DNA of 5,278 bases from a virus. Lineage: Duplodnaviria > Heunggongvirae > Uroviricota > Caudoviricetes. The stretch lies in the IMG/VR virus record IMGVR_UViG_2778261227_000018, positions 1-5,278 of that record. The stretch is one strand, 5' to 3'. Made by a program: the position numbers and the translations under genes. The notes under the pieces are model-generated. The model saw only the letters and a program-made list of their open reading frames with translations. It had not been told where the DNA came from and searched no databases. Positions 2,141 through 3,876 of this stretch are shown here, one piece after another (the stretch's first letter is position 1; every line of letters starts with the position of its first letter).

Positions 2141-2706
2141 CACTTCACCTCCAGCGGCGGTTCCGGTAGCGGCATCCAGTGAGTTGCTTGCTCAATACCA
2201 TTACCCGGCTTAATCGTTGCATCTCCGCGCCGAAAGGTGCTTCCGGTATAGCGTGCGGAGCATATTAGCGGTTCAACCAGAGAGCTATCGAAATTCACCG
2301 AAATAAGCACGTTCTGGCCCTTTTCAGGCATTCGATCACTACAGCTTATCCAACTATCCGGAGTTCCCGGAGAGTTGCCATTTACATCGAAGTTTGGCTC
2401 TGCGTCCTGAACTAGGAGGATGTAACCATTTTTGGCTGTATCAAGTTCTAACGCCTCGGTGACGGTACCGAAATAGCGATTACCTAAATCAGCATCACAA
2501 GTGCTTACATCAATGGAAACTTCCATGCCTTCGATTAATTCTGGCAAGTTGTAAGTTTGGCTTACAGGCTCTGCTTCCAGCGATACCAGTGCAATTCGTG
2601 CCAGTTCTTCCGCTTCTTCTGCTGGCAGTACAACGTTGCTACCAGGTCCGTATGTTTCGCGCCACTGCTTGATTGTCAGCAGTCGCTCTTTGGTAATAGT
2701 GATCAT
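2140..2706 (-). CDS. DUF551 domain-containing phage protein
   Basis: 188-aa ORF. The C-terminal region WISCSDRMPEKGQNVLISV...ATHWMPLPEPP matches the DUF551 signature I recall from lambdoid prophage proteins. ATG 2706-2704 overlaps the upstream stop (TGA 2705-2703) as ATGA. Confidence 0.7.
   Translation of the reverse strand: MITITKERLLTIKQWRETYGPGSNVVLPAEEAEELARIALVSLEAEPVSQTYNLPELIEGMEVSIDVSTCDADLGNRYFGTVTEALELDTAKNGYILLVQDAEPNFDVNGNSPGTPDSWISCSDRMPEKGQNVLISVNFDSSLVEPLICSARYTGSTFRRGDATIKPGNGIEQATHWMPLPEPPLEVK
2147..2152 (-). promoter_or_regulatory. Shine-Dalgarno (GGAGGT) for the exonuclease gene, embedded in the 3' end of the upstream CDS
   Basis: Reverse complement of acctcc at 2147-2152; 6-nt spacer to ATG 2140. 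Confidence 0.5.
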
Positions 2707-3218
2707 GCCGCGTTTCCTTCTTTCTTATTAACAATTACACCGTCATATATTTCATTAAGGTGCCCTCTCAACTCCATGCGCCTTAATGCAGATAACATGT
2801 AATCGCATTCAACCTGCTTATTCCCAGTAAATGGCTTATCGTCAGGATTACCCCAACAGCAATTCCCCTTGGGCCACCCATGTACTTTCCGTACTCTTCC
2901 GTTAACAACGTGAAGTAATCCCCAGCCAGGTGGTAAATCCTCAACTGAAATAATTCCCGGCTCACTAATAAAGAATCGCCAGTCGCCCATTCCAAGAGAC
3001 GGATTTTTACGAAAACGCTTGTTTCTATCTGCCAACAAGTCAGCACGAGAACATTTCGCCTCTATCAGGCATGATGCTGAATTTCTGAATCCCATAGCAT
3101 CTGGCTGTTCTCCGGTACTGGTTACAGCTATAAAGCGGTCATGAAAACAAACCTTGAACCCGTTGCGCTTAAGGAACTTGTACGCAATCTGACAGAGTTC
3201 ACGGTGTGTTAACGCCAT
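2703..3218 (-). CDS. hypothetical protein with PD-(D/E)xK nuclease-like motif
   Basis: Track ORF 2703..3380 overlaps the upstream gene by 161 nt. The internal ATG at 3218-3216 has a near-consensus SD AAGGAG (3230-3225) at 6-nt spacing and lies just downstream of the upstream stop (TGA 3222-3220), giving 171 aa. Sequence contains GEQPDAMGF...(x8)...CLIEAK, a PD...ExK arrangement. Confidence 0.6.
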   Translation of the reverse strand: MALTHRELCQIAYKFLKRNGFKVCFHDRFIAVTSTGEQPDAMGFRNSASCLIEAKCSRADLLADRNKRFRKNPSLGMGDWRFFISEPGIISVEDLPPGWGLLHVVNGRVRKVHGWPKGNCCWGNPDDKPFTGNKQVECDYMLSALRRMELRGHLNEIYDGVIVNKKEGNAA

Positions 3219-3219
3219 A

Positions 3220-3876
3220 TCACTCTCCTTTGATGCGAATGCCAGCGGCGCGCTCGGCTTCACTTTGTTCCCAAAACCACTTGTGAAGCTCCATAAGCTT
3301 TTCGTCAATCGGTGCATATTTGCGATTAAAGTAGGCCTGAGCATCTTGCTCAGATTCGTCCGGTAATTCGCCTGGGCCAAACAGTGTGTTATAAATCCAT
3401 GCCAGTCCGCTTTTAGCGTCGCCAGTCGATTGCCATTCGATAATCGCAGCCTGCATGACCAGAATGTTTTTCCCGATTAATAGGTCCAGTTCTTTGTACC
3501 GGTTGCGGATGTATGCATTCTCGCTTTGTAATTTTGCGTTGCGCTTCTCTGCGGCTTCCAGCTCAACACGCAGTTTCCCTACCGTTAGCGCAATTTCCTC
3601 GTTCTCCTGGTCGCGGCGTTTTATGTATTGCTGGTTTCTTTCCCGTTCATCTAGCAGCGCCAGCACGGTAGCCGGATTAGCCTTGGCAACAAAATCCCGG
3701 ACTGGCTTACAATCAATCTCCGCAATGGGTTGATACGATGTGTAGCCATGCTGTCTTGTATAACTACCGTGACGAATAACGAAAAAATCACCGTTTATTT
3801 TTTTAGCCTGCCACTTATCTTCACCGGCTTTCACTGCCGCCTCACGCAGTGCCTGATAGTCAATTTTGTTTGTCAT
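3220..3876 (-). CDS. Ead/Ea22-like coiled-coil phage protein (tentative family)
   Basis: 218-aa ORF. ATG 3876-3874 overlaps the upstream stop (TGA 3875-3873) as ATGA, with AGAGGT about 6 nt upstream. Central charged heptad-like stretch ERERNQQYIKRRDQENEEIALTVGKLRVELEAAEKRNAKLQSENAYIRNRYKELDLL suggests a coiled coil. N-terminal KIDYQALREAA resembles lambdoid Ea22-family proteins as I recall them. Confidence 0.55.
   Translation of the reverse strand: MTNKIDYQALREAAVKAGEDKWQAKKINGDFFVIRHGSYTRQHGYTSYQPIAEIDCKPVRDFVAKANPATVLALLDERERNQQYIKRRDQENEEIALTVGKLRVELEAAEKRNAKLQSENAYIRNRYKELDLLIGKNILVMQAAIIEWQSTGDAKSGLAWIYNTLFGPGELPDESEQDAQAYFNRKYAPIDEKLMELHKWFWEQSEAERAAGIRIKGE
3225..3230 (-). promoter_or_regulatory. 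Shine-Dalgarno (AAGGAG) for the PD-(D/E)xK-motif gene
   Basis: Reverse complement of ctcctt at 3225-3230; 6-nt spacer to ATG at 3218. Confidence 0.6.

Follow-up and report, generated by a model that had tools for sequence, protein, structure and literature searches.

In a 5,278-nucleotide stretch of tailed-phage DNA (Caudoviricetes; positions 1 to 5,278 of the IMG/VR record IMGVR_UViG_2778261227_000018; hereafter the window), we delineated a minus-strand gene (positions 2703-3218) encoding a 171-residue, MmcB-like protein with a PD-(D/E)xK nuclease fold (PHROG 9263/631), and relocated its start codon. The window belongs to a lambdoid prophage of the Stx type, of which it represents the early-left "exo-xis" accessory region: its DNA matches lambdoid Escherichia coli phages, Stx-converting ones included, at 92-98% in mosaic pieces, and the protein is 100% identical to one found in Stx1a and Stx2a phages. 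Taken as a whole, our explanation, to which we give a probability of about 75%, is that this gene is translated from the ATG at 3218 as a cistron of the exo-xis region, and encodes a single-domain PD-(D/E)xK enzyme acting as a structure- or lesion-selective DNA endonuclease.

The longest open reading frame (ORF) at this place runs on the minus strand from a TTG at 3380 to 2703 (225 amino acids) and overlaps the upstream Ead/Ea22-like ORF (3220-3876, minus strand) by 161 nucleotides (3220-3380), a conflict that an earlier note on this DNA had attributed to a misassigned start. Sequence comparison places the start at the ATG at 3218 and not at the TTG at 3380. As the note had described, this ATG (3216-3218, minus strand) lies just past the upstream stop codon, 1 nucleotide beyond the Ea22 TGA (3222-3220), and follows a Shine-Dalgarno motif AAGGAG (3225-3230, minus strand; -12 to -7) separated from it by the 6-nucleotide spacer AGTGAT. 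The combination AAGGAG-N6-ATG occurs a single time in the window for 0.03 occurrences expected, and was present in 6 of 200 shuffles. At the other end of the gene, the stop codon overlaps the start of the downstream DUF551 gene through an ATGA (2703-2706, minus strand), in line with the compact, coupled operon proposed previously. The 54 additional codons of the long ORF (3219-3380, minus strand) are nothing but the 3'-terminal part of the Ead/Ea22-like gene, translated in a different frame.

This extension was judged spurious because of the alleles located behind different upstream genes, which constitute the decisive evidence. Where the product is 97-100% identical over the 171 residues, the sequence upstream of the ATG is either unrelated or carries in-frame stops 1-15 codons before it (L002, L006, L007, L013-L016, L023 and L025 among the loci compared, the stops being found in L002, L006, L014-L016, L023 and L025). 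For instance, an in-frame stop lies 7 codons before the ATG in phage EC.W1-9, 1 codon before it in Klebsiella phage KpnS_VR6602, and 13-15 codons before it in several E. coli prophages whose Ea22 variants differ, while an Stx1a phage encoding the 100% identical protein has an unrelated upstream sequence. Gene finders have given wholly different N-terminal extensions to proteins that are 97-99% identical across the 171 residues. The ATG is kept in all alleles, and AAAGGAGAGTGA(T/G)ATG is preserved in all E. coli alleles examined, irrespective of the upstream gene. The alleles share only about 30 nucleotides before the ATG, namely the last Ea22 codons and AAAGGAGAGTGA(T/G). In the window, this segment (3219-3250, minus strand) holds the Ea22 C-terminal codons AGIRIKGE, their stop and the Shine-Dalgarno motif, conserved even where the remainder of the upstream gene is unrelated; it is the mark of a mosaic recombination joint that coincides precisely with the gene boundary.

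More distant relatives were surveyed through 121 diverse sequences (120 representatives from 50%-identity clusters; relatives 33-56% identical to the window protein). The representatives mostly start 2-5 residues before a conserved histidine, H5; the commonest N-terminus of the family, M-T-H, places two residues before it, and the window protein has four. The same ATG is annotated by the NCBI Prokaryotic Genome Annotation Pipeline (PGAP) and in the record of phage EC.W1-9, and the exact 171-residue protein is deposited in GenBank for Stx phages. A count of synonymous and nonsynonymous changes in the 162-nucleotide overlap had little to work with, the alleles that share the Ea22 tail differing at just 2 and 6 sites. 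That the real gene would be the 225-residue form, with its 54 N-terminal residues, is a reading that we consider practically negligible. It has in its favour that it is the longest ORF and that some automatic gene callers, as well as the PHROG 9263 profile, carry N-terminal extensions; in that profile, these amount to about 60 extra positions that come from over-extended gene calls. However, extensions that differ wholly between near-identical proteins, interrupting stops, an overlap with the Ea22-like gene, absence from distant relatives and a TTG devoid of Shine-Dalgarno motif next to an ATG with a perfect one all speak against it, and the comparison of alleles and relatives rules it out. 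The suggestion that the start had been misassigned thus stands, the extension showing no conservation in homologues.

The 171-residue product contains the PD-x(n)-E-x-K signature announced for it, with P39-D40 in the string QPDAMGF and E53-A54-K55 in LIEAK. These residues form, together with E37, a motif block encoded at 3054-3110 on the minus strand (E37, 3110-3108; P39-D40, 3104-3099; E53-x-K55, 3062-3054). Its conservation is nearly absolute, with E37 retained in 119 of 120 sequences, D40 in 120/120, and both E53 and K55 in 120/121. A second invariant block, S57-R58-x-D60-(F/L)-L-x-D64, is encoded at 3027-3047 (minus strand) and occupies the helix following strand β3 (R58, 112/121; D60, 121/121; D64, 120/121). 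Conservation extends further to K67 and R70 (120/120 each), G78 and R81 (121/121 each), and H5 (111/114). The earlier note had also singled out a conserved-looking glutamate in the helix preceding the motif, and this part of its description needs amending: only 78 of 114 sequences have an acidic residue at this place of helix 1 (E7), and the strictly conserved additional acid is E37, just before the PD.

Structure prediction is in agreement with these motifs. The AlphaFold2 model, built with 32 homologues (predicted local distance difference test score of 85; predicted template modelling score of 0.80), arranges the elements in the order helix 5-18, strand 23-26, strand 41-45, strand 48-54, helix 58-63 and strand 80-85, after which come a hairpin and, at the C-terminus, a long helix. 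Its core is the α-β-β-β-α-β of the PD-(D/E)xK superfamily, and the motifs fall where the superfamily places them, D40 opening strand β2 (41-45), E53 lying within β3 (48-54) and K55 directly after it. Among PDB structures, Foldseek returned 3DNX as best match (E 1.5e-5), followed by an Hjc (E 0.02), and several matches in a viral structure library bear the name MmcB-like. The D40, E53 and K55 residues align with D42, E55 and K57 in the Hjc protein from Sulfolobus, as well as with D...ECK in 3DNX, and a SRADFxAD motif matching the second invariant block is also present in 3DNX/MmcB-like proteins. The predicted structure therefore bears out the restriction-endonuclease-type fold proposed for this protein, and agrees in both fold and motifs with the MmcB-like structure 3DNX.

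Sequence profiles lead to the same neighbourhood. The protein belongs to PHROG 9263 (E 9.3e-123, residues 3-171) and PHROG 631 (E 3.9e-94, residues 1-170), both annotated as of unknown function. Taken alone, its sequence gave chance matches only in the PDB and had no Pfam match at E ≤ 1, remaining below the 22-bit gathering threshold of PF06319. A profile of the family retrieved 3DNX from the PDB (E 3.8e-5), with a probability of 97.8% in hhalign, and the aligned 3DNX fragment scores 113.6 bits on PF06319. Weak Pfam matches were also obtained among the relatives, to MmcB-like in 11 of 32 (best E 2.9e-4) and to Hjc in 21 of 32 (best E 1.3e-4). The family is thus a distinct and distant sister of the MmcB-like family (PF06319) inside the PD-(D/E)xK superfamily, the protein standing outside the MmcB-like family by Pfam's threshold.

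Several traits separate this sister family from its known neighbours. The MmcB-like family (PF06319 / DUF1052 / COG5321) includes 3DNX, which is SPO1766 and about 21% identical to the window protein, and MmcB of Caulobacter. The invariant E37-x-P-D is replaced in 3DNX by G-L-R-V-D, the equivalent of E37 being missing. The phage family also has an invariant GMGDWR block of its own, and its C-terminal helix is longer. Its genes are carried by phages, those of PF06319 mostly by alphaproteobacterial chromosomes (PMC3424549). According to published descriptions (PMC9578287; bioRxiv 10.1101/2022.06.10.495655), Caulobacter MmcB is a PD-(D/E)XK endonuclease under SOS control, and its presence protects the cells against mitomycin C and cisplatin, a phenotype recorded for that protein only and not for the phage family. 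With archaeal Hjc/Hje (PF01870), the phage proteins share a minimal PD-(D/E)xK core of similar size, whose PD and ExK align residue for residue. By contrast, the likeness to type II restriction endonucleases and CRISPR ancillary nucleases (SdaI, NgoMIV, Can2/Card1) is at superfamily level only, the phage proteins having neither a DNA-recognition nor a CARF domain.

The family is widespread, with 3263 representatives at E ≤ 0.001 in the 50%-identity cluster library and 642 phage records, including Vibrio phages, Salmonella and other Ackermannviridae, Klebsiella phages and Stx phages. Of 5426 complete E. coli genomes, 910 carry the gene, Stx-converting prophages being among its locations. A side observation, made on 248 of its 1297 places in E. 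coli, is that many copies are on records of 57-99 kb bearing a plasmid label; these would probably be phage-plasmids, so that the gene travels beyond integrated lambdoid prophages. Among longer family members, fusion partners are inconsistent and several look like merged gene calls (Ea22 with the nuclease-fold gene, or the latter with a dATP/dGTP pyrophosphohydrolase), while one has a TniB-like ATPase N-terminus.

From these elements, a mechanism can be proposed by analogy with the superfamily, in which the protein is likely a Mg2+-dependent DNA endonuclease; from the catalysis to the metal dependence, substrate and biological role, its components are what we infer. Made from a cistron of the compact early-left operon, with AAGGAG directing initiation at the ATG at 3218, the enzyme would hold Mg2+ through D40 and E53, probably with E37, while K55 would position the water attacking, and thereby cutting, the DNA phosphodiester bond. 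The SRxD(F/L)LxD...K67..R70...GMGDWR81 residues and the C-terminal helix (E137, R146, R147) are a probable DNA-binding surface. With branched or damaged DNA as presumed substrate, such a structure- or lesion-selective endonuclease would aid phage recombination, replication or repair. This role is favoured, as a weaker deduction than the fold and the conserved motif, because the window contains no methyltransferase or recognition domain, because the gene follows recombination modules in lambdoid prophages, because in Vibrio phage C2 and Ackermannviridae helicase genes precede it and the primase gene directly follows, and because its nearest family, MmcB, is described as SOS-regulated and protective against mitomycin C and cisplatin.

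The neighbourhoods themselves are contrasted. In E. coli prophages, the gene follows gam/bet/exo, RecT or Erf modules, while in Vibrio phage C2 and Ackermannviridae it comes after helicases, near or directly upstream of the DNA primase. Lytic Vibrio (Mardecavirus) phages and Ackermannviridae encode a longer homologue, of 205-245 residues, which is immediately upstream of the primase in two loci (L003, 2363-2980; L004, 2480-3097) and separated from it by one gene in a third (L010, 3453-4190); in the Kuttervirus homologue, only residues 4-113 align, the C-terminal half being different. The gene adjoins RusA and is near Dam in a Providencia prophage (L022), and adjoins a methylase in Vibrio phage 431E48.2; methylases are near relatives in L011 and L022 only. 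On two metagenomic contigs (L018, L020), its neighbours are runs of unannotated small genes.

Other functions can be envisaged for a protein of this fold. A type II restriction enzyme was rejected, the window containing neither a methylase nor a specificity domain; none of the window neighbours tested with Pfam is a methyltransferase. An active nuclease used in conflict, to degrade the DNA of the host or competing phages, to exclude superinfection or to act in counter-defence, is an unlikely candidate. Accessory genes in the mosaic early regions of temperate phages typically have such functions, and the gene does sit in the variable exo-xis region with other cargo (a Panacea-domain pair, a PAPS-reductase/SspD-like protein and an HD hydrolase), is mobile among unrelated phages and phage-plasmids, has CRISPR ancillary nucleases Can2/Card1 and restriction enzymes among its fold neighbours, and is found next to the methylase of Vibrio phage 431E48.2 and close to Dam in L022. 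However, PADLOC gives no match for it, it has no constant companion among sensor, specificity or partner genes, its closest relative is a repair-associated family, and in lytic phages it lies inside the replication module. Another, equally tentative possibility is that the phage family forms a functionally distinct nuclease, processing stalled or cross-linked forks or acting in counter-defence; three features are proper to the family, namely an additional invariant acid (E37), a GMGDWR block and an Arg-rich C-terminal helix.

The alignment with Hjc raises the question of a Holliday-junction resolvase of that specific type, which we find improbable: every Hjc score is well below the 3DNX scores, the gene is directly beside RusA in L022, and the helix-1 glutamate, catalytic in Hjc, is acidic in only 68% of the family (E7); the window protein has no match to PF01870, staying under its threshold. 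Even less probable is a DNA-binding or regulatory protein that keeps the nuclease fold but has no catalytic activity. Inactive members of the PD-(D/E)xK superfamily exist, and exo-xis neighbours such as ea22, orf63 and others have regulatory phenotypes and affect the lysis-lysogeny decision, but the near-absolute conservation of E37, D40, E53 and K55 is what selection for catalysis predicts.

The structure- or lesion-selective endonuclease that we favour over these alternatives has itself to be weighed against several observations. The neighbourhoods vary and so point weakly to a role, and the presence of RusA beside the gene in one prophage makes a dedicated Holliday-junction function partly redundant there. 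No model of Pfam, NCBIfam or PADLOC matched the window protein, and our literature searches returned no experimental study of the gene or its family, nor biochemical data for MmcB. The predicted active-site geometry derives from the secondary-structure register and alignments. Finally, an inactivated allele persists in O157:H7 prophages, and the gene is thus dispensable for prophage maintenance.

This O157:H7 allele (L014) carries a 2-nucleotide deletion at nucleotides 156-157 of the gene (codons I52/E53), which alignment places at 3062-3063 on the minus strand of the window, whose own allele is intact. The deletion destroys the ExK motif, and the resulting 58-residue product is annotated as an ordinary protein (WP_001356547.1); PHROG 16308 corresponds to this truncated fragment. 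Nine RefSeq complete E. coli records with an intact 516-nucleotide ORF were sampled (L001, L005, L013, L015, L016, L017, L023, L024 and L025), and in all nine PGAP annotates the first 179 nucleotides only, as a "frameshifted" pseudogene, sometimes with a second ORF of 110 residues covering the C-terminal portion. It seems that intact copies are now being judged against the truncated allele as reference. This systematic error renders a likely functional nuclease invisible in most RefSeq-derived E. coli proteomes.

The gene is an ordinary uncharacterised phage accessory gene, an uncurated member of a known superfamily already present in databases as a hypothetical protein, and holds no surprise for a specialist. 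Nevertheless, for a very common unnamed phage gene the fold is now assigned, along with MmcB-like as nearest family and the residues that probably form the active site. A simple assay of the phage protein would bear on the substrates of both this family and MmcB, and through its characterisation MmcB-type repair proteins would gain their first assigned biochemistry. Its value therefore lies in a corrected annotation and in an easy entry to the biochemistry of MmcB-type proteins.

In the remainder of the window, every gene from 5278 to 1250 lies on the minus strand, with stops and starts that overlap or nearly touch. This series comprises an HD phosphohydrolase resembling 5'-deoxynucleotidases (4742-5278), a PAPS-reductase-like protein (3873-4751), the Ead/Ea22-like gene at the origin of the false extension (3220-3876; Pfam PF13935, E 3e-26), the nuclease-fold gene, a DUF551 protein (2140-2706), an Rv2179c-like 3'-5' exonuclease (1568-2143) and a PrtN/excisionase-like protein (1250-1558). 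An Rfam scan of the window gave no matches. The PAPS-reductase-like protein shows weak SspD/DndC/BrxP similarity (E 9e-15 to 2e-3) and its gene overlaps that of the HD-domain protein by 10 nucleotides; the two may represent a pair related to nucleotide or DNA modification. The N-terminus of the Ead/Ea22-like protein is the Pfam Ead_Ea22 domain, and its residues 107-205 match the PADLOC model "DpdH" (E 3e-35); a prophage passenger may have served to build this model, or the domain may be a shared one.

On the plus strand, a SocA/Panacea-domain protein (1-573; PF13274, E 2e-19) overlaps by 4 nucleotides the next ORF, of 139 residues (570-989; no Pfam match; phrog_19071). Located at the prophage arm, the two resemble an antitoxin-toxin pair of the Panacea kind, for which PADLOC returned no match. 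A 57-residue ORF (1029-1202, plus strand) with a full-length match to phrog_2741 (E 1e-34) is followed by a strong GC-rich hairpin (1221-1246), flanked on both sides by T/A runs, which probably terminates the converging transcripts of both strands.

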